A DNA stretch of 64,000 nt from Candidatus Dojkabacteria bacterium (GTDB taxonomy: Bacteria; Patescibacteriota; Dojkabacteria; SC72): the NCBI GenBank assembly GCA_016182915.1, contig JACPFP010000003.1:187685-251684 (forward strand), written 5' to 3'. The notes beneath the pieces were generated by a model, which did not search any database, was not told the DNA's origin, and saw nothing but the letters and a program-made list of their open reading frames with translations. Of the stretch, positions 1,604 to 28,086 are shown piece by piece (within the stretch, counting starts at the first letter, position 1; each line of letters starts with the position of its first letter). The position numbers and the translations under genes were made by a program.

Positions 1604-1666
1604 AACTGTATTATACTACAGGATAGTGAAGGGATAAATATAAAACGAGGAGGTTAAGCTTACTAG

Positions 1667-1966: not shown

Positions 1967-2016
1967 GACACTTCAGTGATTGAGTAGCACTAACCAACTG
2001 AGCGAATTACCCTATA

Positions 2017-2862: not shown

Positions 2863-2927
2863 ATACTTAGTATTATACCAAAAAGTAGTGATATACTTGG
2901 GAAGATAAAATATTAGATTAAATACCG

Positions 2928-3392: not shown

Positions 3393-3400
3393 TTTCAAAT

Positions 3401-4855: not shown

Positions 4856-4980
4856 TTGTTATTGGCAGTTAAGTTATTAAAGTATAGTAACAAGTTAACA
4901 TATTCGGTAGGCAAGGACAATGTCATTAAGGTTAGATTAATATCTTGATATCTTTTTTGAAAAAATATAGAATCAATTAA

Positions 4981-5514: not shown

Positions 5515-5577
5515 ACTTAGATTTTAGCAGGATATTATTAACTACTTATGAACAAATTAATATGATAAAATCGCTTC

Positions 5578-7092
5578 GTGGTAAACATAAAGGATATTGT
5601 ATATACAGTTGAAGACAGAATGATTCTTGATCACATAGATCTCGTTATAAATAACGGCGAGAAGATTGGTCTTGTCGGTGTAAACGGGGCTGGTAAATCA
5701 ACCTTCCTAAAGATTATAACTGGCATTTTAGAACAGGAGAAAGGGATTATTTCAACAAATGGAACTATTGCATATCTAGAACAGGAGATTAAAAGGAACT
5801 TAGATAATACTGATAATGATTCATACACAATTGAAGAGTATCTTGTTTTGGAGAAGGGATTAGATATACAGGCATGGGAAGTATCAAAGTACCTCAACCA
5901 TATGAATGTAAGTGATAAAAGTGCAGAGAGTATCTTTGGGTCGCTCTCAGGTGGGCAGAAGATTAAGGTTGAACTAATTGCTATCCTTTTCCAAGAGCCT
6001 GACCTTCTTGTCTTAGACGAACCAACAAACTTCCTTGATATACCGACAGCAGAGTGGCTAATGAGGTATCTATCAGAGTATAAGAAGTCTGTTCTTGTTG
6101 TATCACACGACCTTAGGCTCATGAATAAATCAATAGATAGGATATGGTACCTAAATGAGCATACACATAAAATTGAGAGTTTTAATGGTAACTATGACCA
6201 GTTCCTGACCTTTAAAGAAAGACAGAGTGAGTGGCTTGTAAAAGCGTTGAAGAATCAGGAGAAGCAGGTAGATAAGCTATTTAAAACGGCTCAGGTTCTT
6301 TCTAGTAGAAAGTCTGCAGCGGAAAAGATTCGTGCATCAAAACTTTTTGCTAAGGCAGAAGAGAAGAAAATCGAGCTTGAGGAGAAGAAAACCGAGGGCT
6401 CTAAAAAGTCAAGAAAGATGAGAATTGAATTTGAATTAGAGAGGTTAAGTGGGAAAAGTGTTCTTGAGGTTTCCAATATCTCTAAAAGCTATAATGGGAA
6501 AAAGATCCTTAATGATGTTTCATTCTCTCTTCTTAGAGGTGAGCGAATGATTATTGTAGGAAGGAATGGGATTGGGAAAACTACTCTCCTCAAAATCCTC
6601 GCAGGAAAGATTGAAGCGACATCAGGTTCATTTAAGTATGGTTACAATGTTGATCTAGGATACTATGCACAAGAGTTTGATGGCTTGGACTACAGTAAGA
6701 GTTTGATACAGAACTTTATGGAAGATAGTAAGGCAAAGCAATTGGGTAGGAATAGGATATTAGAGATTCTTTCAATGTTTATATTTAAAAGTGACAGGTT
6801 AGATCAGAAAGTTGGAACGCTCTCAGGAGGAGAAAAGACTCGTCTTGCTATTGCAAAACTCATGACTATGAACTGTAACACTCTTCTTCTTGATGAACCG
6901 ACAACATATCTAGATCCTGCCTCACAAAATACTCTTTTAGAATCACTTAAGAACTATAAAGGAACAATTGTACTTGTAAGTCACGTACCTGAATTCGTGG
7001 AGAAATTTAAACCTGACAAAGTTCTGCTACTTCCTGAAGAGAAGTTTACATTCTACGAGGAGAAGTATTTGAATAAAGTGAGGGCTGAGTAG
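5578..7092 (+). CDS. ABC-F family ATPase (two ABC domains joined by a long charged linker)
   Basis: Two Walker A sites (GVNGAGKST, GRNGIGKTT), two signature motifs (LSGGQK, LSGGEK), no TM domain, about 80-aa K/E-rich inter-domain linker. GTG start at 5578. Confidence 0.85.
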   Translation: MVNIKDIVYTVEDRMILDHIDLVINNGEKIGLVGVNGAGKSTFLKIITGILEQEKGIISTNGTIAYLEQEIKRNLDNTDNDSYTIEEYLVLEKGLDIQAWEVSKYLNHMNVSDKSAESIFGSLSGGQKIKVELIAILFQEPDLLVLDEPTNFLDIPTAEWLMRYLSEYKKSVLVVSHDLRLMNKSIDRIWYLNEHTHKIESFNGNYDQFLTFKERQSEWLVKALKNQEKQVDKLFKTAQVLSSRKSAAEKIRASKLFAKAEEKKIELEEKKTEGSKKSRKMRIEFELERLSGKSVLEVSNISKSYNGKKILNDVSFSLLRGERMIIVGRNGIGKTTLLKILAGKIEATSGSFKYGYNVDLGYYAQEFDGLDYSKSLIQNFMEDSKAKQLGRNRILEILSMFIFKSDRLDQKVGTLSGGEKTRLAIAKLMTMNCNTLLLDEPTTYLDPASQNTLLESLKNYKGTIVLVSHVPEFVEKFKPDKVLLLPEEKFTFYEEKYLNKVRAE

Positions 7093-7190
7093 ATTACATC
7101 CTTTCTTAAGTGGATTTTCAAAATACCATTTCATCTTGATTTAATCTCTGTCGTTTACAATAGATATAGATAACTTTATTATTTATAACA

Positions 7191-7652
7191 ATGAGTAAAC
7201 AAGAGCTTGATACAATCAAAAATATGATTACACTAGGGTTCGGAGGGATAAACGATCGGCTTGATAGGATAGAAGAGAGATTAGATAAGATAGAAATGAG
7301 GCTAGATCATCTGGAAACTCGGATGGACAATCTGGAAGCCAGGATGGACAATCTGGAAGCCAGGATGGACAATCTGGAAGCCCGAATGGACAATCTGGAA
7401 GCCCGAATGGATAAGTTGGAAACCAGACTAAACTTACTTGTGGTTAGTTTTGAAAGGTTGGGAGAGAGAGTGGATACATTAGAGACAACCGTAAATTCTT
7501 TGAAAGGTAGCGTTATGACACTTCAAGATACAGTATTTGGAATGGATAGTTATATTCAGGGAGAATTGTTTATAAATCTTAAACAGCTAGATACTCAGGA
7601 TAGAAGATTGGGAAATAGGATTACAAAGGTAGAGAAAGTCGTTTTTAGCTAG
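7191..7652 (+). CDS. coiled-coil protein with heptad tandem repeats (RMDNLEA x4-5)
   Basis: Translation is dominated by about 10 heptads, DRLDRIEERLDKIEMRLDHLETRMDNLEARMDNLEA..., encoded by a 21-bp nucleotide tandem repeat. Confidence 0.5.
   Translation: MSKQELDTIKNMITLGFGGINDRLDRIEERLDKIEMRLDHLETRMDNLEARMDNLEARMDNLEARMDNLEARMDKLETRLNLLVVSFERLGERVDTLETTVNSLKGSVMTLQDTVFGMDSYIQGELFINLKQLDTQDRRLGNRITKVEKVVFS
7300..7425 (+). repeat. 21-bp tandem repeat (about 5-6 units, ggatggacaatctggaagcca and variants) inside the coiled-coil CDS
   Basis: Direct reading: units at 7321-7341, 7342-7362, 7363-7383, 7384-7404, plus degenerate flanking copies. Confidence 0.8.
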
Positions 7653-8436
7653 TTTTTATATGTTTTTTGTAGTAGTAAAGGGTGTTTTTCAAGATTGTCT
7701 TAACCCTATCCTTTCCGAAGGTATCTATTTCCAAATGTTTAACTTTTATAGTTGGGCAGTAGTACACACCATATCCTGCTTCTCGAACTCTTTTACATAG
7801 ATCTTGATCAGCGTGGTACCACATCTTTGGGTCAAATCCCCCTACTTCTTCAAATACCTTACTCTTGACGCAGAAGTTAGCTTCTGAAACCCAATCTACT
7901 TTTCTGAGGGCGTGTTCTGAGAATGATATATCAAGATTAGGAGATATATTTGGATACTTTCTTTTTAGTTCCACAATCTTTTCAAGATTGGTCCAATGTT
8001 TTAGCATTAGGTTATCGACTTTCCTGGCCTTTGTATCTCGGGATAGATTCATTTCGTATCCCCAGTTCCACCACATAGGTTCATCCTTTTTAGTTATAAT
8101 CATTCCACCGACTAAATCTATTGATTTGTCCTTGAAGAGCTCTTCTATCTTCTCGGTAACATCTGCAACTAGTATCTCCATATCTACATCCACGAAAAAG
8201 ATGATATCTCCATGTGGGTATTTTAGGATCCTGCTTCTATTAGCACCTGGACCTACATTTACATTATTTTCAATAACGGTTACTTTAGGGAAGGTTTTAG
8301 CTATTTCAACTGAATTATCCGTTGAGTTATCATCAATCAGATAGATTTGATCGAAGTGTTCATTTGAAAGCTGTTTTAGGATATTGGATATGTTTGAGGA
8401 TCCATTGTAGTTAGGAACAACGGCGGTTATTTTCAT
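7645..8436 (-). CDS. glycosyltransferase family 2
   Basis: N-terminal ITAVVPNYNGSS...YLIDDNSTDNS GT2 (GT-A fold) signature and DVD motif. Confidence 0.75.
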   Translation of the reverse strand: MKITAVVPNYNGSSNISNILKQLSNEHFDQIYLIDDNSTDNSVEIAKTFPKVTVIENNVNVGPGANRSRILKYPHGDIIFFVDVDMEILVADVTEKIEELFKDKSIDLVGGMIITKKDEPMWWNWGYEMNLSRDTKARKVDNLMLKHWTNLEKIVELKRKYPNISPNLDISFSEHALRKVDWVSEANFCVKSKVFEEVGGFDPKMWYHADQDLCKRVREAGYGVYYCPTIKVKHLEIDTFGKDRVKTILKNTLYYYKKHIKTS

Positions 8437-15455: not shown

Positions 15456-15995
15456 TTGTTAACTATTATCGTAACAGATATAATTATACCACTCCCCCAA
15501 TTAGATAATTACTTTTGTATTTATATGTTCCCTTTCAACTTATTTAGAACGAAAGATACGGTTCCAACGGAAGAAAATGAGGAGAAGTTCCGAGCATTTA
15601 TAGCTGAGTTTAAAACTGCAATCTCTGCAGTACGTTCGGAGCTATATCAATACGAAGGAATTTTGAATGATATAGAACACTTCCCAATTCTTAAGGAGAA
15701 ACTAGATAACCCAGATCTCTACAATTATCTATTCACAATGGCTTGGATATTCGAACAGAATCACCAAAGACTACTTGAAGAGAAGCATGTTGAAGATCAG
15801 ATGCTGAAAAGAGGTATAAACATGACGTGTGAGTGGATAGAATATAAAGAGATCGTTAACGGGGCAATGCAGGTATGTTTCTACGATAGTGATGGGCATT
15901 ATGTTTTCGAAACTATAATATATATGGACGAAAGTCGGGCGGTGTTAGAGATTAATCCACCAGATGAAGGTCATGAAGCAATAATTCTTTTATAG
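15456..15995 (+). CDS. hypothetical protein
   Basis: 179-aa ORF, no motif. Confidence 0.3.
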   Translation: MLTIIVTDIIIPLPQLDNYFCIYMFPFNLFRTKDTVPTEENEEKFRAFIAEFKTAISAVRSELYQYEGILNDIEHFPILKEKLDNPDLYNYLFTMAWIFEQNHQRLLEEKHVEDQMLKRGINMTCEWIEYKEIVNGAMQVCFYDSDGHYVFETIIYMDESRAVLEINPPDEGHEAIILL

Positions 15996-17087
15996 ACTCA
16001 ACCTTGGATCCCTATCAACATTCTCGATTTCAGCTAATGTTGTGATAACCTCTCCTCTTTGTACAGAATAGTAGCCTGCAATACATATCATCCCTGCATT
16101 ATCACTTCTATAATCTCCTTTTGGATATAGATATCTCAAACCCCTATACTTAACAATCTTCCCGATACTTCTTAAAATATACTCACTACTGAATACTCCA
16201 CCTCCTACAAATACACTTTTAACTTCAGGGTACTTTTCGATTGCCATTTCTAGTTTAATAACTACAGATCTCTCTATAGAGTTAACAAAAGATCTACATA
16301 AATCGTATACCCACTCCTTCTGTGGTATATCTTTCTCCTTAAACTCCTTAATTTTATAAAGCACTGCAGTCTTCAAACCCGAGTAACTAAAATTAAGATC
16401 CTTGGATCTCTCAAGCGGGATTGGAAGAGGTATAACCCCAACCTTTCCTCTCTTTGCAAACTCCGATACAACAGGTCCACCAGGATACCCGAAATCTAAC
16501 ATCCTACCAACTTTATCAAAGGCCTCACCGGCAGCGTCATCCAATGTTAAACCCAACTTTCTATACTGTCCAAATCCCTCAACGTATATAATTTCGGTAT
16601 GTTTACCGGACATTAGTAGTCCTAAGGCTGGAAAGAGGTCTTCAAGCTCTTCATTTGCCACTAATCCTACCCCTTTACTGTTTAGTGTAAGGGAGGAGAG
16701 AAGATGCCCTTCCATATGGTTGACTGCTATTAAAGGTTTGTCGTATTTCCTACACAACTCTTTAGCAAAAGTAATGCCAACCTCAAGGTCGATAGCAAGT
16801 CCAGGTCCCTTTGTGACAGCGACATAATCAACATCTTGAATTGATACTTTCGCTTTTTTAAGAACCTCTTCATACACACCTTGGATATTCTCTTCATGAG
16901 CCCTTTTTGCAATCATAGGAACTACTCCTCCCCATTCTCTGTGGATCTCAACTTGTGTGGCTCTGATACTAGATAGCACTCTTCTACCAACAGATATGGC
17001 AATGGATGTTTCATCACAACTGGTATCAATTCCCAATATTGTGGGTTCTTTTTCCCTCATAATATTCATGCGATTATTATAGCACAA
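15990..17087 (-). CDS. tsaD: tRNA N6-adenosine threonylcarbamoyltransferase TsaD (Kae1/TsaD family)
   Basis: ILGIDTSCDETSIAI N-terminal motif, HMEGH metal-binding motif, ASKH-fold conservation. Confidence 0.9.
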   Translation of the reverse strand: MCYNNRMNIMREKEPTILGIDTSCDETSIAISVGRRVLSSIRATQVEIHREWGGVVPMIAKRAHEENIQGVYEEVLKKAKVSIQDVDYVAVTKGPGLAIDLEVGITFAKELCRKYDKPLIAVNHMEGHLLSSLTLNSKGVGLVANEELEDLFPALGLLMSGKHTEIIYVEGFGQYRKLGLTLDDAAGEAFDKVGRMLDFGYPGGPVVSEFAKRGKVGVIPLPIPLERSKDLNFSYSGLKTAVLYKIKEFKEKDIPQKEWVYDLCRSFVNSIERSVVIKLEMAIEKYPEVKSVFVGGGVFSSEYILRSIGKIVKYRGLRYLYPKGDYRSDNAGMICIAGYYSVQRGEVITTLAEIENVDRDPRLSL

Positions 17088-17122: not shown

Positions 17123-17470
17123 ATGAATTGTCCCTACTCTAGTTGTCCCTTTAATATAAGGGAAACCTGTACACCACACGACAATAAAGGCTACATATCA
17201 TACAGTGAGGCGGTTTATATTCTTGATCAATGCGAGAACCCAGAGTTACACATAAGAGCTCTATCAATGCTCAATTTTATAGCAATATCTCACTACAGGA
17301 CACTTAGTGATTTGAATGGTCAGATCCCATTTCTTTACCTTGAAAAAGATATTTGTGATTATATGCTCGACGAAAGAGAAGATTACCTCCTCCCCGATTC
17401 TCCCATCTGGCTATCACTGTTTAAAGGGGAAGAGTACCTTTTAGATTTTATTAGTGATGACGTTAGTTAG
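17123..17470 (+). CDS. hypothetical protein
   Basis: 115-aa ORF between the two t6A genes on the opposite strand. Weak evidence. Confidence 0.25.
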   Translation: MNCPYSSCPFNIRETCTPHDNKGYISYSEAVYILDQCENPELHIRALSMLNFIAISHYRTLSDLNGQIPFLYLEKDICDYMLDEREDYLLPDSPIWLSLFKGEEYLLDFISDDVS

Positions 17471-18569
17471 TCTCGTACACAGAGATCTCCCTTTCTTCAA
17501 AGGATAGATATTTGAAGTTAACTTTTACTATCTGTCCTCCATATTCTTTTACAATCTTTTCAAGTTCATTGTAGTACTTATCTGCCCACTCTATAACTAC
17601 AATATCAGATTTTTCCAAGTACTCTTGTAATCCAGATCTTTCAAACTCATTACTATCCTGTATTCTCCATGTGTCCATATGGGCAAGAGTTCTATCTTTT
17701 CCATTATCAGTGTATTTATACTCATTAATTATTGTATAGGTAGGGGAATTAACAACATCCTCAACCTTAAGATAGTTACCAACTCCCTTCGTAAACTGGG
17801 TTTTTCCGGCTCCAAGCTCACCACTGAGAGCAAATACTAGAGGTCCGTTAGTATGTCTCTCTGTAAAGACTCGAGTTATTTCCTCTCCAAAAGCAATAGT
17901 TTCATCAGGAGTTTTAGTTATAAGGGTTGAATATAGCTTAGACTTCTTAATAGCCTGTTCAAACTCAATCTTTCCTTCCCTCAATACCTGGAGACTGTTC
18001 ATTGTAGTATCAAGGACTGTTGATGGAATATTCTTTGGAAGCTCACCTGCATCAATTATCAAGTCAACAGACTCAAAACTCTTCTTGGGGGTTAGTTTAA
18101 GATACTGCTCAATGCTGTATGGAACAGGTTTATATGAGACATTAGCAGAGGTAGCGGTTATTGGCTTTCCAAAAGCTTTAACAATCTCTATAGGGATACT
18201 GTGGTCTGGTATTCTAATACCAATAGTTCCAAATTCGGATTCAACTCCTTTTGCAACTCCTCCCTTGCTTGTAGAGACAACGGTTACTGGCCCCGGCAGA
18301 TAGTTTTTATACAAGTTATCTGCCATTTCATTTATATCTACATACCTACTGGCCATTTCCTTATCGGTAACGGCCATTGAGAAAGGTTTTTGTCCTCTAA
18401 ACCCTTTATACTCGTATAGCATATCAACGGCTTTCTGATTGGTTGCGTCAACGGCAATTCCATAGCATGTTTCAGTTGGATATATAACAGAGCCACCAGC
18501 TTTAAGTACCTTAACAGATTTAATTACTATTTCTTCTAGATTACCCCCTGTTACTTTTATAATCTCCAT
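17463..18569 (-). CDS. fusion of L-threonylcarbamoyladenylate synthase TsaC/YrdC (N-terminal) with t6A ATPase TsaE/YjeE (C-terminal)
   Basis: N-half: YPTETCYGIAVDA, KGFRGQKP, PGPVTVV, IRIPDH, ATSANVS (YrdC/Sua5 motifs). C-half: FALSGELGAGKTQF P-loop, NSPTYTIINEY, HMDTWRI, VVIEWADK (TsaE motifs). Confidence 0.8.
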   Translation of the reverse strand: MEIIKVTGGNLEEIVIKSVKVLKAGGSVIYPTETCYGIAVDATNQKAVDMLYEYKGFRGQKPFSMAVTDKEMASRYVDINEMADNLYKNYLPGPVTVVSTSKGGVAKGVESEFGTIGIRIPDHSIPIEIVKAFGKPITATSANVSYKPVPYSIEQYLKLTPKKSFESVDLIIDAGELPKNIPSTVLDTTMNSLQVLREGKIEFEQAIKKSKLYSTLITKTPDETIAFGEEITRVFTERHTNGPLVFALSGELGAGKTQFTKGVGNYLKVEDVVNSPTYTIINEYKYTDNGKDRTLAHMDTWRIQDSNEFERSGLQEYLEKSDIVVIEWADKYYNELEKIVKEYGGQIVKVNFKYLSFEEREISVYETN

Positions 18570-19936: not shown

Positions 19937-20013
19937 GGAGTGGTAGCTCAACTGGTTAGAGCATCGCACTGTCACTGCGAAGGTTGCGGGTTCGACTCCC
20001 GTCCATTCCGCCA
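19937..20013 (+). tRNA. tRNA-Asp (anticodon GTC), CCA encoded
   Basis: ggagtggtagctcaactggttagagcatcgcactGTCactgcgaaggttgcgggttcgactcccgtccattccgCCA. Standard cloverleaf, anticodon loop ctgtcac. Confidence 0.85.
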
Positions 20014-20224
20014 TTCTTCATAGATTCCCACAAGACTCGTTTGCTATGCCCCAAAACCTTTATGGGGATTAGGTTAGTTTGCATCAAAAAGTGAAGTTTT
20101 CAAAACTAAGGCCTAGTAGACGAAAACACCCACTTTAAGGCCAGTTTTCAGTAACTATTGGTTCGATGTATAAAGCCTTTTGTGGCTTGGTATTCCCCTC
20201 TCTCCCTGATATAATTCCATCTAC

Positions 20225-20380
20225 ATGGCAACAGAAAATAACATCATTTCTGAAGATTTCGTCAAAAACTCGATCATTAAGTGGTTATCTTGCAATGGTT
20301 GGGGTTATTTCAAGTTTGAGGATCTCCACACTCATGGAGTAGATATCAGAGCTAGAGCAATAAATTATGCAAGAGACTAA
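20225..20380 (+). CDS. small ORF (51 aa), possible PD-(D/E)xK nuclease N-terminal fragment
   Basis: MATENNIISEDFVKNSIIKWLSCNGWGYFKFEDLHTHGVDIRARAINYARD. The pattern E...hhGVDI resembles the first half of a restriction-endonuclease-like fold, but no downstream ExK. Overlaps the next ORF by 14 nt. Confidence 0.3.
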   Translation: MATENNIISEDFVKNSIIKWLSCNGWGYFKFEDLHTHGVDIRARAINYARD

Positions 20381-20750
20381 ATATTACTGTAAGAATTGTA
20401 ACATGGAACTTTTACCCGACGAGAAACCTTGTGCATCATGTGGATCTGAAAAAAGAAACATCAATTTATTAATTGCTGAGAAAATACAAATGCATGAATT
20501 ATTAAAAACAAAACAGAAGCGTAAAATCGAAAATAAAACAAAAATAATTCACGAGCAAAAGATCGGAGACGAATTATTCAAAAAAGATAATGCATGGAGA
20601 TACATACATAGAGTTTTTGACCATATAAAAGATAAATATTCAGAGCTAATAATTGATAAAGCATCAGGTAAAACTATCATTGATAAAAATGAGAAACTCT
20701 CAAAACACTATAATCATGGGAGCGCAAAATTTAAGAAGCCTTTGAGATAG
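20367..20750 (+). CDS. zinc-ribbon protein with lysine-rich tail
   Basis: N-terminal CKNC-x11-CASC zinc ribbon, followed by a K/E-rich region. Confidence 0.45.
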   Translation: MQETKYYCKNCNMELLPDEKPCASCGSEKRNINLLIAEKIQMHELLKTKQKRKIENKTKIIHEQKIGDELFKKDNAWRYIHRVFDHIKDKYSELIIDKASGKTIIDKNEKLSKHYNHGSAKFKKPLR

Positions 20751-20805
20751 TAAAAGTTGAACAAATGAGAGATAATTAGGCCGATTTAATTACTTAAAAG
20801 ACAAA

Positions 20806-21963
20806 ATGTTAAGAGTCACTCCTTCTACAAATCCAATTTCTTTTCATAGTTGGAACAACTATGACCCTTTTCATTATACAGCGATTATCACCGAAATTCC
20901 CATAGAAACCGAACTATGGTCCTTGCTTGATATGGTCAGTGAAGTCACAGAATATCGTAAAAATCTTCTTAAACAAAACAAACTCAGCGATACAAAAATC
21001 AAAAGTACATCTCCAATTGTTCAATCTTTCATTCGGCAGGCAAAAAGGTATTGGTATTCAGCAAGAAAAACTGAAAACCCATCTAATTCTCTCTTATACT
21101 ATTACTCGTTTCTCAATTTAGTGAAGGCATATCTCGCATCTAGGGATCTAATACTGACAACATCGGATACTCACCATGGACTACATACCCAAGATGATCC
21201 GAAACCGAAGCCAATTATGTCTAAAAAAATAACACTAAAAGGCCATTCACCAAGTAATGTTTTTTCAAATTTTCACAATACAATCTTTAATTCAAACTTT
21301 TTATCACAAAAGACACATGCTGTAACTTTGCGCGAATTGTTTAAATATTGTGAAGCGATAGGGATGGAAAGCAATTCAGTTAATAATACTGATTTAAATC
21401 TCTCACATTTTAAAATAATTTGTGACCATAAATCTCAAGACAAATATAGGATTGTATTTAACGTAAAGGGAGGTTTTCGTATAAACAAAATTCCCAACAT
21501 AAATACATATTTAAAAAGTTTTACTAAGTACGAATATAGACATGTCGCAATTGATGTAGAAAAAGCATTTCCTGCAATTAATACAGCTAATATTGATTTA
21601 TACTACGGTTCAGAATTTGACCCATCAAAAGAACAAACTAATAAAACAGGCTTCTTGGAATCCTTTAATCAATATATATCTCCTACATACTCTCCCGATT
21701 TATCAACAGGAATCATTTATTTACCTGCCAGAGTGAGATGTCAAAATACAATGGTAAATCTACCAATATCTCAGGATCAAGCTATTTATTTAATAATGTT
21801 CTTTTTAAGCGAAACAGTAAGATATAGACCTAATCAGCTTGATGATATTGCAGACAAAAAAGAACTTTGGCTTATTAACAGCTTTTTGGATAACTGTCCA
21901 ATAATTTTCTTAAAGGCAATAACAAATTTGATATTAAATCAAAATTTCATTATAAAAGCATAA
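20806..21963 (+). CDS. hypothetical protein (385 aa), islet-encoded
   Basis: Long AT-rich ORF with helical N-terminal region RYWYSARKTENPSNSLLYYYSFLNLVKAYL. No confident family assignment. Confidence 0.45.
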   Translation: MLRVTPSTNPISFHSWNNYDPFHYTAIITEIPIETELWSLLDMVSEVTEYRKNLLKQNKLSDTKIKSTSPIVQSFIRQAKRYWYSARKTENPSNSLLYYYSFLNLVKAYLASRDLILTTSDTHHGLHTQDDPKPKPIMSKKITLKGHSPSNVFSNFHNTIFNSNFLSQKTHAVTLRELFKYCEAIGMESNSVNNTDLNLSHFKIICDHKSQDKYRIVFNVKGGFRINKIPNINTYLKSFTKYEYRHVAIDVEKAFPAINTANIDLYYGSEFDPSKEQTNKTGFLESFNQYISPTYSPDLSTGIIYLPARVRCQNTMVNLPISQDQAIYLIMFFLSETVRYRPNQLDDIADKKELWLINSFLDNCPIIFLKAITNLILNQNFIIKA

Positions 21964-21970
21964 AATTAAT

Positions 21971-22543
21971 ATGAAGGAAGATGTCTTATTAAATATTTTT
22001 TTCGCGATCATCGACAAAATACCCGGAGCAATAGAATTGCTATACAAATTCATTTCTCCGATTAGGATTGAACCTGCAGAATTAGAATTCAAAACAAATG
22101 TATGGAATGAGAAGCTCTCATTTACAGTATCGAATTTGGGGAGAAGAACTATTTATGAAATCTATTTATTAATACCTATTGAAAATACTGCTTTTGATGA
22201 AATTAAAATCAAAACAAGCGAAGAAGAAAAAACTTTAAATCAGGAAAATTTACGAAACATAAGCCTTAACTACTCAATTCTTTTGCTACATATTACAGCA
22301 GAAGGTAAGAATTTTGTTTTGTTAAAAATCTATGGTCTAGATAAACAAACATCTAATAAATTCACTATCAAGACAAAAGGCAGATTTAAATCTAAATTAA
22401 GCATACTTCAATTCCAAACCAAAGAACAAGCTGTATTATCTAATGCAAAAGAAATAGCGATACAATTTCAAATCCCTAAAAAGTTTCGCTATAAGAATAT
22501 TAAACTAGCAGGAACGAGCATTTTACTAAAAAGAGACAATTAA
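21971..22543 (+). CDS. hypothetical protein (190 aa), islet-encoded
   Basis: ORF starts 7 nt after the previous stop, no motif. Confidence 0.4.
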   Translation: MKEDVLLNIFFAIIDKIPGAIELLYKFISPIRIEPAELEFKTNVWNEKLSFTVSNLGRRTIYEIYLLIPIENTAFDEIKIKTSEEEKTLNQENLRNISLNYSILLLHITAEGKNFVLLKIYGLDKQTSNKFTIKTKGRFKSKLSILQFQTKEQAVLSNAKEIAIQFQIPKKFRYKNIKLAGTSILLKRDN

Positions 22544-22717
22544 ATACTCTATTTTTTATACGTCTCATTTGTCTCATTCTCATTTTGGGTTCCAGACTCG
22601 TATGTCCCGTTTTACGGAATACACATTCCCGAACTATTCAAAAAGGTTGTTTTCGTAATCATACTAACGATTCGGGTTTCCATATTCCGTTTACTAGGGT
22701 TGATGAAACTCCGAACT

Positions 22718-24013
22718 CTAAATTCTCATAGAAACCTTTCTGGGCCAACCAATTTGAATAAATGGGACATCTTTACACAAAGATTTTCTAACACTATTTA
22801 ATAGATCAATCTCTTCTATTGAACTTTCTTCTTTCTCTCCCACAACTAATATGTTTGCTATTCCCTCTTCATGAGCCATCTTAATCCTTTTTCCTACACT
22901 CTCTGCTCTATCATCAATATCAATTCTAATATCGTTATTCTCCTCTATCAGTTTCATACCAAAATCAACAAATTTTTCACTCACAGGAATAATTCTTAGT
23001 TGTATTGGTTGGAAATCAATTGGAATGCCTTTATAGTTATCAACTAACATATATATGTACCTTTCAATACCACCAGGAATAGCAGAATGAATAATTACTG
23101 GATATTTACTATCTCCATATTTAATTCCTAATCTTTTTGCATTTCCAACATCAATTTGAATGCATCCAATTTCTCTAAACTGCTCAAGCTTATCAATAAT
23201 TCCATAATCTATATCTACAATCCAGTATTTCTCTTCCCCACCTAGTTTGATATCAACAAGAACTTCTTTATTATTATTCACAGCAATCTTTATAATTTCT
23301 TGTTTGTATTTCTCCCAATTTTCATCAGAACTAATCTTTGCAATGTTTACACATTTCTTTCCTGCTAGCTCAAAAGCTGAAAGAAGTTGTTTTTCAAATT
23401 TTGGATACCATTCCCATGCCTGATTAACATCTTTGAAGTATGGATGGATATCAGGCATAAAGAATCGCCTGTTTCTGTATAACAACATACATTCGCCACT
23501 TTGTTCAAATCTATAACAATCGGAAAGAGAAAAATGTGCAAATGGAAAATCTTTTTCATTTAATCTCATCTTTGAAGCAAGATTAAATTGAGGGTAACTG
23601 GCATCATAACTCATTACCATATCGTTTGATTGAAATAGCCTATCTCCAAAGAGTCCAGCATATGCTTGTACTACTGGGTGTTTCAAATCAAAGAAGTTAC
23701 TTCCTTTGACTTCATACACTGACATGCCAACTTTATTAACTAGATTCCTTGCATATCCTTCTACCAATCTTCTAATTAGATCAGCTTTATAATTGTAATT
23801 AAGAAACCCTATTTGCGAATTGTCTTCCCAACTAAATCCCAGTTTATTAGCAATGCTAATATAATCAGACATATTTACTGATTCCCACTTTTCGCTAAGA
23901 ACTTCTCTCCTAATACAGATGTTCATTTCATATGAGCACTGTTTTAGTTTTAGATACTTTTCTGCTTTATATATTTTTCCTTCTCTATTTATTACTAAAT
24001 ACTTATTTTTCAT
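22718..24013 (-). CDS. threonyl-tRNA synthetase-like class II catalytic core plus anticodon-binding domain, lacking N-terminal TGS/editing domains
   Basis: DYISIANKLGF (ThrRS RDHRKLGKELDLF-like), motif 2 CYRFEQSGECMLLYRNRRFFMPDIH (ThrRS hRNEpSG...R.RgF.qDDaH), motif 3 GGIERYIYML, C-terminal RIIPV...RAESVGKRIKMA anticodon-binding domain. Only about 50 residues precede the catalytic domain. Confidence 0.7.
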   Translation of the reverse strand: MKNKYLVINREGKIYKAEKYLKLKQCSYEMNICIRREVLSEKWESVNMSDYISIANKLGFSWEDNSQIGFLNYNYKADLIRRLVEGYARNLVNKVGMSVYEVKGSNFFDLKHPVVQAYAGLFGDRLFQSNDMVMSYDASYPQFNLASKMRLNEKDFPFAHFSLSDCYRFEQSGECMLLYRNRRFFMPDIHPYFKDVNQAWEWYPKFEKQLLSAFELAGKKCVNIAKISSDENWEKYKQEIIKIAVNNNKEVLVDIKLGGEEKYWIVDIDYGIIDKLEQFREIGCIQIDVGNAKRLGIKYGDSKYPVIIHSAIPGGIERYIYMLVDNYKGIPIDFQPIQLRIIPVSEKFVDFGMKLIEENNDIRIDIDDRAESVGKRIKMAHEEGIANILVVGEKEESSIEEIDLLNSVRKSLCKDVPFIQIGWPRKVSMRI

Positions 24014-24082
24014 ATTATTAAATTAAACAAATTAAATTTGAATTTCTTCTATTTGGGGTATGAAGTTTTTAGTTTGAAGAAT

Positions 24083-24206
24083 AAAAAAACTCCCGATTGT
24101 GGGAGTTGTATTCGTTAAATAATAAAATATATCCCAACAATCAGACCCTTGTTGTCTGAGTCGTTGTTTTTAAAACTATATTTTTATTATTCATATGATT
24201 TTTCAT
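24083..24206 (-). ncRNA. candidate small transcript: extended -10 promoter (TGGTATAAT) to intrinsic terminator with conserved 3' module
   Basis: Minus-strand TGGTATAAT is the complement of 24214-24222. Downstream inverted repeat attcatatg-aaaaat-catatgaat. Terminator hairpin ctccc-acaatc-gggag plus T7 (24083-24105). The 3' module AACGAAnnnAACTCCC..GGGAGTTTTTT is shared with 48357-48400. Confidence 0.25.
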
Positions 24207-24432
24207 ATGAATAATTATACCAAATATTGATATTTTTATGAACAATATTGTTTTAGTAGATTATTTATCTCTATCAATTCTATATTCAAGCATTTAGTTC
24301 GGGTACACTTCCATATCCTCAGTTTATGTTTATCAACATGAACATAGCTTAGATTTATCAATAAGTATTTTCCTTTTTTAATTGGAACGACTTCCTATGG
24401 GATTTCGTGAAAACAACAAAGCGATTGACATA

Positions 24433-25449
24433 CTATTCCTGAACTTGGAACTGTGGAATCTTTTGCATGACATCAAAAAGTTGTTTCAATGAGACATTGA
24501 AAACTTCTGAGAATCTTCTATAAATAACATTGCCTATTGATACATTAGGTATCTTACCCTGTGTGAAATCATGTAACGATCCATAATATGACCACAAGTA
24601 TGCCTGAATAAGTAAAGACATAAATTGACAATTTACATAGTCATTTTCCTGTAGCCTTGAAGTTCCTGAATTAAGAATTAAATCATAAGCAGGAGTACCA
24701 CTCAACTTTTCTAGTAGATTAAACTCTGCTCTATTATCAAGCAAATGCCCTCCAATCCTATTTGAATACATTTTCCTACCAAGTTCCTTATATGCGGAAT
24801 CTAAATCAATCGCTTCTAGTTTTATACCAATAATTGGTTTAAGTTGCATTGGATCAACGACATCATAAGCGTAATATCCGTCTTCATGATAATACGGAGT
24901 TCTTGCGAGTGCTTGTGCGTGACCACCAATACCTGTTGATACAGCATTTGGGGCAGTATAGTGAATTACCATTGGAATACCTAAATCATCTGCTATCCAG
25001 TTTACAATTTCTGCGGGAATTTCTTCTCCGTCTACTAAGGATTTCAACATTTTTACTCTTGGGTGGTTTTCATCATACACAGTAATATTTAGACCATCAT
25101 TTGTTAACTCCTCATCAAATATAAGATGAACATCCTCTTCCCTATCGATTTCCAAACTTATACTATCCCAAATGTCTAGCCCATCTTTCAAATCTTTAGG
25201 TATTGGGAAGTTTCCTCTGATAAAGTCTTCTCTTGCTGGTGTACCTTCTTCAAACATTTTATTTCTAACAATATCTGCCAGGTATGAAGCAACCTCAACA
25301 TTATGTTGACGCCATGTTTCTAGATCTTCTTGACTTCTTATTTCATCAAGTGACATAGCGAATCGTTTTGTATCCCATTTGGGAAAAATCTGCACTAACT
25401 CTTCATCTTCATGTTGATTTAGTATTTTTACATCTAAAGGTAATGCCAT
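24433..25449 (-). CDS. hypothetical protein
   Basis: 338-aa acidic ORF, no recognisable motif. Confidence 0.4.
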   Translation of the reverse strand: MALPLDVKILNQHEDEELVQIFPKWDTKRFAMSLDEIRSQEDLETWRQHNVEVASYLADIVRNKMFEEGTPAREDFIRGNFPIPKDLKDGLDIWDSISLEIDREEDVHLIFDEELTNDGLNITVYDENHPRVKMLKSLVDGEEIPAEIVNWIADDLGIPMVIHYTAPNAVSTGIGGHAQALARTPYYHEDGYYAYDVVDPMQLKPIIGIKLEAIDLDSAYKELGRKMYSNRIGGHLLDNRAEFNLLEKLSGTPAYDLILNSGTSRLQENDYVNCQFMSLLIQAYLWSYYGSLHDFTQGKIPNVSIGNVIYRRFSEVFNVSLKQLFDVMQKIPQFQVQE

Positions 25450-25720
25450 AATAACAGTATATCAATTATCTATGTAACAGGAAATAAGTTCTAACTTCAT
25501 TCAATCTGTTCCGCCATACTTCATATGCGTCCAAACTATTGATTACTTTGTTACTATTGAAGAATGAATAATCATCAGTAGTAAAGCCGTAAAGTAATAT
25601 ACTATTGAGAATCTACTCCCACATTTGCATAGGCTATAAGTATTTTGGAGTATATATACAAATCTCTACAAAGGATATATATTTTACTGGCTAAAACCTT
25701 TATTTTAATAATCTATTTAT

Positions 25721-26725
25721 ATGTCTAAATTTCTTGATTTATTAAGGAAGCTAGGAATATTCAGATCGGGATCAGTATCAGGAACATATACTAATGCTAA
25801 AGATAGGCCATCGGAATTTCAAATGGATGGAGTTTTCAATGCAAAGAAGGACCTTGTAAATAAGGGAGATTTTAAAGGATTCAGTTTATCGAGAATCCTA
25901 CTAATTGTTGCCATCCTTATTGGGTTACTATTCATCATTGTAGTAATTGGAAATGCTGGTTTTTCAATATGGACAATCATTATGATCGTATTATGGTTAT
26001 ATATTTTCTGGAGGTTCTGGCACATAGGTTTAAGTATTTTGATGATGGTTATATTCTTAGTTATTTCAACCTCCTTATCACTAGTTGTTCTTACAATTTC
26101 AAACGCTTCCTCCGATACAAGCAACGATGGGAAGAATACAACATTAACAGATGCTAATTTTGACAAAAAAGTTTTAAAGATCACGTCAAGCGACGGTTCT
26201 GTTACAGGAACAATCGGACTTGTAAAAAAGAAAAATAATGTAAAGAAGGAGTATCTAGCTGCTACGTTCAACATGCTTATTAAAACAAATCTAACCCTTA
26301 ATTCAAAATGTGGTACACCGGGCTATATAATGGGCATAAGCTGTACTAAAGGTTATGAATATGCAGGACGACTTGTCCCTGTTAAAGATGCAAATGAGAA
26401 GACTAGCACTGGGAATGTGAGTGCTGTTTATTGCAGTAACTACCAGTTACCTGAACCATACAGCATATCTGGAACAGGCAATACAATGATAGGATGTATA
26501 AATGGAAATACAGACAATATAACAACAGAAACATTTGCGACAAACTTCCAGATAAATTTCTACTCCTACTCTGAGATTTTGGAAATAACCACTTTTGAAA
26601 TATATGATAGATCCGACTTCTGGGAGCCCACAAAAGGAGTCTCTGGATCATTTACAGGGAATAATGATAAAGCAGTTCAACAGACAAATCCTGTTAAAAC
26701 TCTTGTATTTACTGTTACAGAGTAA
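25721..26725 (+). CDS. membrane-anchored extracellular protein, function unknown
   Basis: Three predicted N-terminal TM helices, then a Thr/Asn/Gly-rich, probably beta-rich domain. Confidence 0.45.
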   Translation: MSKFLDLLRKLGIFRSGSVSGTYTNAKDRPSEFQMDGVFNAKKDLVNKGDFKGFSLSRILLIVAILIGLLFIIVVIGNAGFSIWTIIMIVLWLYIFWRFWHIGLSILMMVIFLVISTSLSLVVLTISNASSDTSNDGKNTTLTDANFDKKVLKITSSDGSVTGTIGLVKKKNNVKKEYLAATFNMLIKTNLTLNSKCGTPGYIMGISCTKGYEYAGRLVPVKDANEKTSTGNVSAVYCSNYQLPEPYSISGTGNTMIGCINGNTDNITTETFATNFQINFYSYSEILEITTFEIYDRSDFWEPTKGVSGSFTGNNDKAVQQTNPVKTLVFTVTE

Positions 26726-26943
26726 GTAGATCGCAAATATTTGCACGCCATCCTCTCTGCATTTGAAAGATGAATCTGCTCGGCTTTAAATGATTATTCT
26801 CGTATATTCCGTCTCTTGAAACCTTTATTTCCGAAAGATCTATTTTCCCAATTTATGCTTTGTCTAAAGCATTCTGGTATTTAAGCCCTATATATGAGAG
26901 TTTAGGAATTTCCGAACTCCTCTAAAACCTATATAATCATGCT

Positions 26944-28086
26944 ATGAAATTAATAGATATTTATAAAATAGCTGACTCAAAAGATTCATACACAAAAGAG
27001 GAACTTTTTGAAGTAGCTTTTAAGACATCCTCTCTAATTCAGGAAAGCAAGTTCAAAGACAAAATATATAGAGGTAAGGTATCGAACAAAATAACTTTAC
27101 TTTTCCCAATTTACAATGAAGAAGCTTTTCTTGATTATTCTTTAGAATCTTTCTTCAACTCTTACGCATATCCAAAAACGTCATACCAGGTCATATTCTT
27201 CTTGAATTCCTGTACAGATAATAGTTTTGAAAAAACAATAAAGATATTACAGAAGTACAAACAAGTAGTTAAAAGGACTATTGATAAAAAAGAATACAAA
27301 ATGTTAAGTGATCCAGGATTGGATATCACTTTTTTCTATTCCGAAGATAGTAACTCATACCAAATCATAAGAACAATGACGAAAGGAAGAGTCAACGCAC
27401 TAAAGGTCGCAACCAGAATGGCAAAAATGAATAAATCACGGGCCATAATATCACTTGATACAGATTTCGTTTTGGACCCACTTGCGATATATAGTTTATC
27501 CCAAGAAGCTATGAGACATATAGTGCAAAAAAAAGATACTATTGCATTAACTGGTTCACCTATTATTGTAAATAATAAGAAATATACAAAAGTACAAAAA
27601 TGGCTACGAAATCATTTTGTATGGAAAGATCAAGTATATAATTCCCTGTCTGGATGCAGTTTGGTCTTGGAACCAAACTGGTTACATAAAAATATAGAGG
27701 ATAATATAATTGAGGATTATGCCTTGGGTGTAAAAGCAAGATACCAAGGATACAAGGTATTGAGAGTTGAAAGCGCAAGAATGTGGGGATATAGAACGGA
27801 TTATAAGGATGATCTAAAACAATTAAGTAGGTCTATAAAAGGACGTTATCAATTATTGAAAAAACATCCTGAATTTTCGGATATTATTCTAAGAGACCAC
27901 TTCTTCATTCGACCGTTCTTCAAAAGAATTTCTTATATCCTAAACTCCCTCTATAAGAATCCGAAACTAACATCTAAGTGGCTTTGGACATTTATATTTG
28001 TGGAAATCGCGATATTAAGGGCAAAAAGGGATTACAAATTGAAACCGAATGAAATTGATTGGACACCTTTAGATACTGGTCGTTAA
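26944..28086 (+). CDS. glycosyltransferase family 2-like
   Basis: LLFPIYNEEAFL...VIFFLNSCTDNS N-terminal GT-A signature and DTDF (DxD) motif. Confidence 0.55.
   Translation: MKLIDIYKIADSKDSYTKEELFEVAFKTSSLIQESKFKDKIYRGKVSNKITLLFPIYNEEAFLDYSLESFFNSYAYPKTSYQVIFFLNSCTDNSFEKTIKILQKYKQVVKRTIDKKEYKMLSDPGLDITFFYSEDSNSYQIIRTMTKGRVNALKVATRMAKMNKSRAIISLDTDFVLDPLAIYSLSQEAMRHIVQKKDTIALTGSPIIVNNKKYTKVQKWLRNHFVWKDQVYNSLSGCSLVLEPNWLHKNIEDNIIEDYALGVKARYQGYKVLRVESARMWGYRTDYKDDLKQLSRSIKGRYQLLKKHPEFSDIILRDHFFIRPFFKRISYILNSLYKNPKLTSKWLWTFIFVEIAILRAKRDYKLKPNEIDWTPLDTGR

Follow-up and report, generated by a model that had tools for sequence, protein, structure and literature searches.

A YaaC-family protein with a predicted HEPN-like core in a probably accessory gene block next to tRNA-Asp of a Candidatus Dojkabacteria chromosome

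Gene order, base composition and flanks of the block

The DNA analysed, a 64 kb stretch of a Candidatus Dojkabacteria chromosome referred to here as the window, carries a tRNA-Asp gene followed by four ORFs on the same strand (Table 1). Their positions, and the 14-nt overlap, 55-nt gap and 7-nt gap between successive frames, were verified against a preliminary description of this sequence, and the three sequence strings quoted there were likewise present where it had placed them. The block is flanked by housekeeping genes, i.e. those for enolase, TsaD, Sua5-TsaE and thioredoxin, and thrS. The product of the last of these has a class II core and an anticodon-binding domain (Pfam tRNA-synt_2b and HGTP_anticodon) without an N-terminal editing domain, and matches NCBIfam PRK03991 with an E value of 1.1e-90 over profile positions 153-563 of 613.

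Table 1. Features of the region between tRNA-Asp and thrS (window coordinates)
Feature	Position	Strand	Remarks
tRNA-Asp, anticodon GTC	19937-20013	+	ARAGORN; Rfam tRNA 70.3 bits
Spacer 3' of tRNA-Asp	20014-20224	+	39.8% GC
51-aa ORF	20225-20380	+	From the ORF list; doubtful as a gene
127-aa putative zinc-ribbon protein	20367-20750	+	
385-aa YaaC-family protein (PF14175)	20806-21963	+	
190-aa protein, small unnamed family	21971-22543	+	
Spacer between the 190-aa gene and convergent thrS	22544-22717	.	37.4% GC
Threonyl-tRNA synthetase-like gene thrS, 431 aa	22718-24013	-	Right boundary of the region

A sigma-70-like promoter match at 20187-20215 (TTGGTA, a 17-nt spacer and TATAAT with TG before it; 10 of 12 matches) ends 10 nt upstream of the ATG of the 51-aa ORF, and the count of promoter-like sites across the region was not above that in shuffled sequences. 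The three genes downstream might be transcribed as one unit from this site. Rfam searches and fold z-scores gave no sign of a structured or conserved RNA in either spacer: both were devoid of Rfam matches, the z-score was 0.08 for the left spacer and -0.40 (+ strand) and -0.83 (- strand) for the right one, and the right spacer holds no terminator-like site.

The 51-aa ORF had been read as the first half of a PD-(D/E)xK fold. It had no match at E ≤ 1 in Pfam, NCBIfam, PHROGs or PADLOC, no tblastn match in plasmids and only self-hits among all of the loci fetched in this work, and neither public annotation (the Logan gene calls among them) calls it as a gene. With neither a library match nor a homolog the nuclease idea is unsupported, but it is not disproved, because such a test has little power at 51 aa. 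The GC content of the ORF (35.9%) resembles that of the spacer and differs from that of the downstream genes. It is most likely not a gene but untranslated leader sequence; at best it would be a small orphan ORF.

The 2.6 kb adjoining the tRNA had been described as more AT-rich than their surroundings. This holds for 20367-22543 (30.0% GC; gene mean 36.3%) but does not extend to the first 353 bp past the tRNA (20014-20366), which have 38.2% GC and so exceed the window average; the left spacer is not AT-rich, as its GC content shows (Table 1). Taken as a whole, 20014-22690 has 31.5% GC; the window average is 35.9%, and a value this low is reached by only 3.9% of segments of the same size. By tetranucleotide distance the interval ranks in the top 2%. 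The 190-aa gene has the lowest GC content (28.8%) of the 57 genes in the window and the 385-aa gene the third-lowest. To the right of the block, the intergenic region regains a higher value (Table 1) and low GC returns in the adjoining thrS (31.5%). Several other genes near the block are also low in GC.

We then considered the signs of integration on which the preliminary description had relied, namely imperfect direct repeats bounding the block and a degenerate copy of the tRNA 3'-end beyond the last ORF. The repeat pair (20025-20052 and 22588-22609) is at chance level: it boils down to a 10/11 core, AGACTCGT(T/A)TG, with a score of 17, which is the mean of dinucleotide shuffles (16.7, S.D. 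2.1). The best local alignment of one flank with the other scores 19, involves a different pair, and this score was attained by 182 of 1000 shuffles and by 165 of 716 real window segments; an exact 8-mer in common was seen in 44% of shuffles. The supposed tRNA-end copy (22673-22689) has only CGGGTT in common with the tRNA and belongs to an imperfect 20-nt inverted repeat (22614-22633 and 22671-22690), within its right arm; the two arms are 75% complementary and separated by 37 nt. In addition, searches of the 64-kb window with the 3'-terminal 25 or 16 nt of tRNA-Asp, allowing up to three mismatches, recovered the tRNA gene alone. The reported lack of an integrase was borne out by a scan of the four ORFs and of the larger ORFs (at least 110 aa outside the block) between approximately 11.7 and 32 kb in the window: none of them has a recombinase domain, and the larger ORFs within approximately 10 kb on either side showed no trace of a recombinase, complete or fragmentary. 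With repeats at chance level, an unduplicated tRNA end and a compositional boundary that does not coincide with the tRNA, the proposed signature of an integrated element is unsupported. The block does resemble tRNA-associated genomic islands in its position 3' of a tRNA, its accessory cargo and its atypical composition, but differs from them in that it lacks both an integrase and a direct repeat of the tRNA 3'-end and has its compositional boundary 353 bp from the tRNA.

Two small protein families and their relation to the 385-aa gene

The 127-aa protein has an N-terminal CxxC...CxxC arrangement and a lysine-rich tail with the conserved motif LSKHxxHGxAK at its end. It scores 21.8 bits (E 1.6e-4) against Zn_Ribbon_1 (PF13240), under the cut-off of 25. 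Its sole detectable homolog is a 134-aa ORF in the phage contig MT836000.1, with 35% identity over 120 aa (E values of 4e-6 by tblastn and 1e-13 in a pairwise comparison) and with both cysteine pairs invariant. This homolog is a moron-like ORF that lies on the opposite strand between the tail genes and the tape-measure gene. Among 5.8 billion clusters the 127-aa protein found only itself, and in PADLOC its tail matched AbiEii with just 14.9 bits (E 0.003). These data document a small uncharacterized family of putative zinc-ribbon proteins common to a Dojkabacteria genome and a phage.

The 190-aa protein begins with a hydrophobic helix, which the alignment and hydropathy show as a clear transmembrane helix in many members of its family, and the domain that follows is beta-rich and probably of the sandwich type. 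Its AlphaFold2 model is poor (pLDDT 48.6) and is all-beta after two helices. Residues P35, W45 and N55 are nearly invariant. Although the protein has no match in Pfam, NCBIfam, PHROGs or PADLOC, 58 representatives of the family were found at E ≤ 1e-3 among 1.84 billion proteins, largely from Patescibacteria where a source is named. One member gene lies inside an integrative element at tRNA-Gln together with genes for a large serine recombinase and a Rep protein, and another lies 123 bp after a tRNA-Ser; further members occupy housekeeping surroundings, between SecA and NUDIX/SecDF or after MutS-MutL, and one is fused to an HNH_2 nuclease domain. The neighbouring genes differ in the two close relatives, which share 49% and 45% identity with the 190-aa protein. 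The analysis documents a small uncharacterized family of membrane-anchored, beta-rich proteins of approximately 190 aa that sometimes rides integrative elements. The 190-aa gene of the block is predicted to encode a membrane-anchored beta-rich protein from this rare family, which is also carried as integrative-element cargo.

The block had been put forward as an undescribed four-gene system, possibly in phage defence. None of the 64 loci of YaaC genes, the family to which the 385-aa gene belongs (see below), carries a relative of the 190-aa protein, the zinc-ribbon protein or the 51-aa ORF; for the 190-aa family this was established by an HMM scan within 6 kb, and the reciprocal scan found YaaC in none of the seven other loci of the 190-aa family. 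A zinc-ribbon relative was absent from every fetched YaaC or 190-aa-family locus. The idea of a new multi-gene defence or Abi module, with the 190-aa protein as a membrane-anchored sensor, the 385-aa protein as an HEPN-type effector and possibly the zinc-ribbon protein as a third part, draws on the shared strand and tight spacing of the genes, the single promoter-like site upstream, the HEPN-like character of the candidate effector and the HNH_2 fusion, which hints at use of the 190-aa family in conflict systems. That only 7 nt separate the 385-aa gene from the 190-aa gene would also fit a functional pair too rare to show up elsewhere. Such a module is, however, largely refuted by the co-occurrence test, and the differing neighbours of the two closest 190-aa relatives, the zinc-ribbon protein's absence from all of these loci and the lack of a PADLOC hit count against it as well. 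We therefore regard it as highly improbable, and the block merits no priority on that ground.

Better founded was the claim that the block is accessory. The atypical composition of 20367-22543, the thin scatter of YaaC, the rarity of the 190-aa family and the lone phage homolog of the zinc-ribbon protein all indicate accessory status and probable horizontal acquisition. It is conceivable that a single element inserted at the 3'-end of tRNA-Asp, that its recombinase and most att sites have since disappeared, and that the whole block is what is left of it. Such an origin would account for a compositionally atypical segment directly downstream of a tRNA, all three genes of which are accessory with mobile or phage relatives, and it finds a parallel in the 190-aa-family genes in the serine-recombinase element at tRNA-Gln and after tRNA-Ser. 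Two JGI metagenome contigs (L070 and L071) encode a ThrRS with 78% identity and have a different gene, rather than the block, directly downstream of thrS. They have nothing besides thrS in common with the window, however, and because synteny is lost on both sides of thrS they provide no empty site. The chance-level repeats, the assignment of the supposed tRNA-end copy to an inverted-repeat arm, the single tRNA 3'-end in 64 kb, the want of any recombinase or fragment within approximately 10 kb and the 353 bp next to the tRNA that are not AT-rich also speak against a single element, as do the differing phyletic patterns of the three genes, which are never together elsewhere. On this evidence we consider a one-element origin unlikely.

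We favour, with moderate confidence, the reading that 20367-22543 is a mosaic accessory islet made up of genes with separate histories, each linked in its own way to mobile elements or defence, and one of which probably encodes a solo HEPN-type effector. The three genes were probably picked up separately.

Predicted fold and active site of the YaaC-family protein

Contrary to the preliminary view that none of the proteins could be assigned to a known family, the 385-aa protein is a member of PF14175 (YaaC; type member Bacillus subtilis YaaC), with a score of 100.2 bits (E 2e-28) compared with a gathering threshold of 27. The match runs end to end (model positions 15-306 of 307) and all invariant residues are kept. 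In length the protein exceeds the 307-position model by approximately 70 residues. PF14175 is matched by every one of the 54 aligned homologs, and the residues invariant among the 54 sequences are, in the numbering of the 385-aa protein, Q78, L96, Y98, Y99, Y100, F102, N104, H124, G125, R339, Y340 and L369, as re-verified on a ten-sequence subset. The closest relatives are approximately 30% identical, and the protein belongs to a subfamily of approximately 380-400 aa that is distributed patchily over CPR, Proteobacteria, Chloroflexota, Bacteroidota and Actinomycetota at 25-32% identity.

The AlphaFold model of the YaaC-like protein has a four-helix core that matches HEPN proteins. The predicted core helices (62-88, 94-111, 323-340 and 352-377) form an up-and-down bundle of HEPN topology, which is split between helices 2 and 3 by an alpha/beta insert of approximately 200 aa (about 112-322). 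At the sequence level no Pfam HEPN or AbiV match was obtained at E ≤ 1 in the 54 members, a YaaC profile search of PDB sequences was empty and Foldseek gave no match for YaaC. When aligned by hhalign, LNLVKAYL...HGL was placed on ENYLKSFL...HDL of a classical HEPN (a PF05168 protein), with a probability of 0.4%, which is not significant. The literature searched assigns YaaC neither a function nor a fold and contains no link to defence; the name occurs zero times in Anantharaman et al. 2013 (PMC3710099) and YaaC is not among the HEPN families given there.

The canonical Rx4-6H motif is absent from YaaC, as no histidine follows R339 by 4-6 residues and the consensus reads RYxPxYL. R339 is nevertheless invariant and is placed at the end of core helix 3, and an alternative invariant histidine, H124, lies just after helix 2, at the beginning of the alpha/beta insert. 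In HEPN proteins of the AF0298/AbiV type the motif arginine is likewise kept, with an alternative conserved histidine between core helices 2 and 3, and the positions of H124-G125 and R339-Y340 are those of this alternative histidine and of the motif arginine (PMC3710099). Because the canonical motif is absent, catalysis by the YaaC-like protein is not assured.

AF0298 itself (UPF0332-type; PDB 2hsb, 'HEPN-T' group of Anantharaman et al. 2013) departs from the canonical motif in the same way as YaaC, with the arginine present and the motif histidine lost. It is, however, a minimal HEPN domain of 126 residues, whereas the YaaC-like protein has an alpha/beta domain of approximately 200 aa inserted in the fold, and the two have no detectable similarity at the sequence level. 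Such a domain is usually paired with a minimal nucleotidyltransferase antitoxin (HEPN-MNT modules), but no such gene adjoins the 385-aa gene. Lactococcal AbiV, a small stand-alone HEPN-type phage-defence protein from an abortive-infection system of the type III toxin-antitoxin kind, is grouped with AF0298 by the alternative-histidine pattern (PMC3710099). It is an HEPN RNase that degrades rRNA and carries Rx4-6H, which YaaC does not (preprint 10.1101/2024.05.05.592566). Unlike the YaaC-like protein, AbiV has only approximately 200 aa and no large insert; moreover, it requires the RNA antitoxin abiV2, no counterpart of which was detected beside the 385-aa gene, and the 385-aa protein matched neither the Pfam HEPN_AbiV nor the PADLOC AbiV models. 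AbiV could serve as a working model for YaaC-like action, the resemblance being one of functional analogy only.

The 385-aa gene is the only gene of the block with an inferable mechanism. Its product may work by itself, probably in dimeric form as other HEPN proteins do. It would be an abortive-infection- or toxin-type effector, either a metal-independent RNase or an RNA-binding protein, in which the insert of approximately 200 aa could be a sensing or regulatory module.

Genomic neighbourhoods of YaaC genes

In three loci YaaC genes are embedded in, or terminate, type I restriction-modification (R-M) operons, with the same-strand orders HsdM-HsdS-YaaC followed by Fic (L005), HsdR-YgjP-YaaC (L016) and HsdS-AAA_13-HsdR-YaaC (L044). 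Two further genes lie beside type II or IIG systems: in L046 an AAA_21/AAA_15 ATPase gene and YaaC share a strand beside an Eco57I-type enzyme, and in L004 a type II methylase, an ORF of 190 aa, YaaC and a PF05168 HEPN protein follow one another on the same strand. Most YaaC loci have no obvious defence neighbour, no conserved neighbour cluster was detected, and the proximity of YaaC loci to tRNAs is near chance. Searches of phage, plasmid and IMG/VR collections returned no relative of YaaC, and no model of PADLOC-DB v2 matches the 51-aa, 385-aa or 190-aa protein.

CPR genomes are rich in orphan genes, and we also weighed whether there is an island at all, or whether fast-evolving lineage-specific CPR genes came to lie beside a tRNA by chance, with YaaC in a housekeeping or other non-defence role. 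The abundance of such orphans, the housekeeping genes on both flanks (from enolase, TsaD, Sua5-TsaE and thioredoxin to thrS), the low GC of thrS and several nearby genes, the housekeeping surroundings of some 190-aa-family loci and the silence of the literature searched on YaaC in defence would all suit this explanation, and a non-defence role might be assumed for B. subtilis YaaC. It is less easily reconciled with the scatter of the YaaC subfamily from CPR to Actinomycetota at 25-32% identity, the repeated insertion of YaaC homologs in R-M operons, the phage homolog of the zinc-ribbon protein and the position of the 190-aa and 385-aa genes as lowest and third-lowest in GC content of the window. 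We judge this explanation to be distinctly improbable.

The mosaic reading retains one part of the phage-defence idea, which fails for the block as a four-gene module and survives for a single gene, the HEPN-like YaaC with relatives in R-M operons. HEPN genes embedded in R-M operons are an established theme, with AbiU2, AbiJ and AbiA-CTD as examples (Anantharaman et al. 2013). The YaaC homologs fit this theme, although R-M genes are absent near the 385-aa gene of the window, and their placement suggests a back-up to DNA-targeting immunity. The YaaC-like protein is a plausible stand-alone anti-phage gene product. More tentatively, YaaC (PF14175) as a whole may be an unrecognized branch of HEPN proteins with a sensor-like insert, acting as stand-alone anti-phage or Abi RNases that often reside in R-M operons; if so, the Dojkabacteria copy would be one of the few recognizable defence effectors in a CPR genome.

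The lead that remains is accordingly the YaaC family, with its HEPN-type predicted core, its AF0298/AbiV-style variant of the active site and its recurrence in R-M operons of unrelated bacteria, which would add one more class of solo HEPN effector to the defence repertoire. This proposal is testable in tractable hosts, and YaaC homologs were found on contigs labelled Klebsiella, Haemophilus, Vreelandella and Helicobacter.

Boundaries and composition of the block beside tRNA-Asp

The window comes from a 506-kb contig of a Candidatus Dojkabacteria (CPR/Patescibacteria) metagenome-assembled genome. Both ARAGORN and Rfam placed the tRNA-Asp(GTC) gene where the preliminary description had put it, and the four ORFs behind it were verified together with their 14-nt overlap, 55-nt gap and 7-nt gap, as were the sequence strings quoted in that description at their positions. 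Upstream lie the genes for enolase, an ABC ATPase, TsaD, a Sua5–TsaE fusion, thioredoxin and a GGDEF protein, and downstream a convergent ThrRS-like gene (thrS) is followed by three proteins without a Pfam match, a HAD hydrolase and glycosyltransferases; in agreement with the reported lack of an integrase, no recombinase was found among the domain matches of the four block ORFs and the larger ORFs around them, from about 11.7 kb to 32 kb of the window. The sole good promoter candidate for the block is a sigma-70-like site (TTGGTA, a 17-nt spacer and TATAAT preceded by TG), promoter-like sites being no more frequent in the region than in shuffled sequence. The upstream TsaD gene adjoins that of the Sua5–TsaE protein, a fused t6A-pathway gene in which Sua5/YrdC (threonylcarbamoyl-AMP synthase) and TsaE domains are combined.

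The region 20014–22690, previously described as AT-rich, does have a lower GC content than the window (31.5% against 35.9%), a value that low being reached in 3.9% of same-size windows (sd 2.1%); by tetranucleotide composition, its distance from the window falls in the top 2%. However, the low GC does not begin at the tRNA as had been thought, the 353 bp that follow the tRNA having 38.2% GC, and the low-GC block proper spans 20367–22543 (30.0%). Both spacers flanking the block are unusually GC-rich for this genome in comparison with two others, at 20751–20805 and 24014–24432, of approximately 25% GC. GC is low again in thrS, the next gene after the block. When the 57 genes that encode 150 aa or more (mean 36.3%, sd 2.6%) are ranked from the lowest GC upwards, the 190-aa gene comes first, with the 385-aa gene in third place and thrS in fourth. 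Rfam at E≤1 matched the tRNA alone and no ncRNA in the GC-rich spacers, and none of the fold z-scores of the spacers (0.08, −0.40 and −0.83) was significant for structured RNA.

We compared the flanks 19990–20224 and 22544–22717 by local alignment, with 1000 dinucleotide shuffles and 716 real window segments as reference, and by an exact-word test. The imperfect direct repeats thought to bound the block shrink to AGACTCGT(T/A)TG, 10/11 identical, with a score of 17 that equals the shuffle mean (16.7, sd 2.1). The top alignment was a different pair, whose score of 19 was attained in 182 of the 1000 shuffles and 165 of the 716 real segments, and the frequency of an exact 8-mer common to both flanks was 44% among shuffles and 46% among real segments. 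The string at 22673–22689, taken for a degenerate tRNA 3′ end, has CGGGTT alone in common with the tRNA and is instead the right arm of an imperfect 20-nt inverted repeat, 75% complementary with a 37-nt loop, in the spacer on which the 190-aa gene and thrS converge. This repeat has no T-run and an ordinary fold energy; it may serve both genes as a transcription stop or bind a protein. Searches with the final 25 or 16 nt of the tRNA, at up to three mismatches, gave no further copy within the 64-kb window, and no direct repeat bracketing the block was found. With repeats at chance level, no second tRNA 3′ end and no bracketing repeat, the signature of integration is absent, and the block is not demonstrably one integrated element.

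Features of the window and of fetched loci with homologs (L numbers)
Sequence	Feature	Position	Strand	Remarks
Window	TsaD gene	15990–17087
Window	Sua5–TsaE gene	17463–18569	−	368 aa
Window	tRNA-Asp(GTC)	19937–20013
Window	Left spacer	20014–20224		39.8% GC
Window	Sigma-70-like site	20187–20215
Window	51-aa ORF	20225–20380	+
Window	127-aa zinc-ribbon ORF	20367–20750	+	HYV12_03035 (100% identity)
Window	Spacer	20751–20805		~25% GC
Window	385-aa YaaC-like ORF	20806–21963	+
Window	190-aa ORF	21971–22543	+	HYV12_03045 (100% identity)
Window	Right spacer	22544–22717		37.4% GC
Window	Inverted repeat	22614–22633 / 22671–22690
Window	ThrRS-like gene (thrS)	22718–24013	−	431 aa; 31.5% GC
Window	Spacer	24014–24432		~25% GC
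Window	Three successive protein genes	24433–28086		338, 334 and 380 aa
L005	YaaC operon	3182–7077		HsdM-HsdS-YaaC, then Fic
L016	YaaC operon	2047–7050		HsdR-YgjP-YaaC
L044	YaaC operon	363–6876		HsdS-AAA_13-HsdR-YaaC
L029	Truncated YaaC ORF	6172–7083		243 aa
L045	Split YaaC gene	2042–3138		Two adjoining ORFs
L037	Split YaaC gene	5168–6201		Two adjoining ORFs
L073	P0100 (190-aa family)	74–871		HNH_2 domain
L074	Apparent integrative element	2502–7792		JGI Ga0645779_02230
L081	134-aa ORF (127-aa family)	1421–1825		Phage contig MT836000.1

The YaaC-like protein and its predicted HEPN-type core

The gene of interest in the block is that of the 385-aa protein, which had been regarded as not assignable to a known family and which we found to match the YaaC-like family (PF14175) over nearly its full length (E 2e-28, 100.2 bits). 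A search of 5.8 billion clusters returned 87 homologs, all PF14175 and the best approximately 30% identical, and in an alignment of 54 sequences Q78, L96, Y98–Y100, F102, N104, H124, G125, R339, Y340 and L369 are invariant. The AlphaFold2 model derived from this alignment is confident (pLDDT 85.4, pTM 0.90) and places core helices at residues 62–88 and 94–111, then about 200 residues of alpha/beta structure, and further core helices at 323–340 and 352–377.

In the AF0298-like and AbiV variants of the HEPN domain, the His of the Rx4-6H motif is missing and the basic residue is kept, an alternative conserved His being supplied from an insert between helices 2 and 3 (Anantharaman et al. 2013, PMC3710099). 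The YaaC-like protein resembles these variants in that R339 stands at the end of core helix 3 with no His after it, and the invariant H124–G125 pair lies 13 residues past core helix 2. This predicted link between YaaC and HEPN draws only on the modelled fold and motif geometry. Pfam at E≤1 gave no HEPN match for any of the 54 YaaC members, a profile search of PDB sequences with the YaaC family returned nothing, and hhalign against a PF05168 protein gave a probability of 0.4%, though LNLVKAYL...HGL pairs with ENYLKSFL...HDL. Foldseek comparison of the model with the PDB and BFVD was also negative, as expected from the discontinuity of the core domain, and a literature search yielded no paper connecting YaaC to HEPN, restriction-modification or defence. 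We consider it likely that the core is truly HEPN; the protein itself is outside the AbiV family and does not carry the canonical HEPN motif.

A genome scan yielded 64 YaaC loci from very diverse phyla, including Saccharibacteria, Daviesbacteria, Moranbacteria, Gamma- and Alphaproteobacteria, Ktedonobacteria, Anaerolineales, Bacteroidota and Actinomycetota. Several of these homologs sit on the same strand within defence operons, the same arrangement as described for other HEPN families: YaaC closes type I restriction-modification operons in a Daviesbacteria MAG (L005), a contig labelled Klebsiella pneumoniae (L016) and a Flavobacteriaceae MAG (L044), it follows an AAA_21/AAA_15 ATPase adjoining an Eco57I-type enzyme (L046), and it stands after a type II methylase and a 190-aa ORF and before a classical HEPN protein (L004). 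Raw family-level counts over 150 YaaC neighbours also include SWI2/SNF2, Schlafen AlbA_2, PLD, SLATT and two integrases, with PADLOC matches to mad2, AriA and AbiLi. No family of neighbours was shared by more than three of the 64 loci, about five of which have a tRNA within 2 kb, near a rough chance estimate, and no YaaC relatives were found with these queries in phage, plasmid and IMG/VR collections. The YaaC-like protein would act on its own as a HEPN-type RNase or RNA-binding effector, in the manner of the AbiV-type abortive-infection proteins, AbiV having been reported as a HEPN RNase that degrades rRNA (10.1101/2024.05.05.592566); we put forward a role in defence tentatively, as a possibility below even chances.

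A second adjacency of YaaC and tRNA-Asp(GTC) was seen in a Caulobacteraceae MAG (L029), where a truncated YaaC ORF ends approximately 100 nt from the tRNA in a relative orientation opposite to that in the window. In addition, frameshifts break two YaaC genes (L045 and L037) into pairs of adjoining ORFs, each ORF matching PF14175; these genes are probably pseudogenes or assembly errors.

The accompanying ORFs and the case for a single system

The 190-aa protein gave no match in any of the four libraries searched and has two close relatives (49% and 45% identity). In a profile search, 58 of 1.84 billion representatives matched at E≤1e-3, 16 of them at E≤1e-10. Members of this family are approximately 180–220 aa long, with an N-terminal hydrophobic helix, clearly transmembrane in many of them and of borderline character in the window protein, and then a beta-rich domain in which P35, W45 and N55 are nearly invariant. 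The AlphaFold2 model, built from only three usable sequences, was too poor for a fold search (pLDDT 48.6), and a PDB profile search returned nothing beyond non-significant matches to immunoglobulin V-domain strands (E 0.2–2), a lead at most. In one member, P0100, an N-terminal HNH_2 endonuclease domain (21.9 bits, cut-off 21) replaces the hydrophobic helix, a hint of possible coupling between the beta-rich domain and a nuclease.

The contexts of the 190-aa family vary from locus to locus. At L074 an apparent integrative element adjoining tRNA-Gln carries, in order, a large serine recombinase, a Rep protein (REP_ORF2-G2P/RepSA), two small ORFs, the family gene and unknown 184-aa and 201-aa genes, with a DEAD helicase, DUF2726 and HsdR past the element; elsewhere the gene lies 123 bp after tRNA-Ser, between SecA and NUDIX/SET/SecDF, or after MutS-MutL in a Gracilibacteria genome. 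The family was not found on phages, on plasmids or in IMG/VR.

The 127-aa protein has a sub-threshold zinc-ribbon match and retrieved only itself from the 5.8 billion clusters. A single homolog was detected by tblastn, a 134-aa ORF of a phage contig (35% identity over 120 aa) that retains both CxxC pairs and the C-terminal LSKHxxHGxAK motif. Flanked by tail genes on one side and an 871-aa tape-measure-like gene on the other, this ORF runs on the opposite strand, a moron-like placement in the classic moron position; further IMG/VR scans and plasmids yielded no other member. The reading of the 51-aa ORF as half of a PD-(D/E)xK fold is unsupported, with no match in four libraries or any collection; the ORF is missing from the Logan gene calls and resembles the spacer, not the downstream genes, in GC content. 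We rejected a weak BLAST match between it and the ORF upstream of the L045 YaaC homolog, that ORF being the N-terminal piece of the frameshifted gene.

The 64 YaaC loci held no relatives of the 51-, 127- and 190-aa ORFs (BLASTP, phmmer and family HMM), and YaaC was absent from seven other loci of the 190-aa family (HMM scan); the two sets of loci had no partner in common. We lean slightly towards reading the block as a mosaic in which three accessory genes each have their own history, and not as one system such as the proposed four-gene defence system.

The thrS side of the block

Looked up as exact proteins, thioredoxin, ThrRS and the 190-aa protein were found in the source sample alone, and a ThrRS scan of the genome-contig collection gave no match. 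A metagenome scan found two JGI contigs (L070 and L071) with ThrRS 78% identical, one of which (L071) has a convergent 841-aa gene 31 nt downstream. Neither contig carries a tRNA or islet gene, and nothing besides ThrRS is in common with the window on either side. These different neighbours indicate that the block does not always accompany thrS; the contigs do not supply an empty site for it.

The ThrRS-like protein matches the archaeal-type profile PRK03991 at positions 153–563 (E 1.1e-90, below cut-off), and thus lacks the N-terminal editing region. Beyond it, the three successive proteins had no Pfam assignment at the thresholds applied, and the 380-aa gene is likewise low in GC (31.8%), so that a variable, poorly annotated zone may reach well past thrS.
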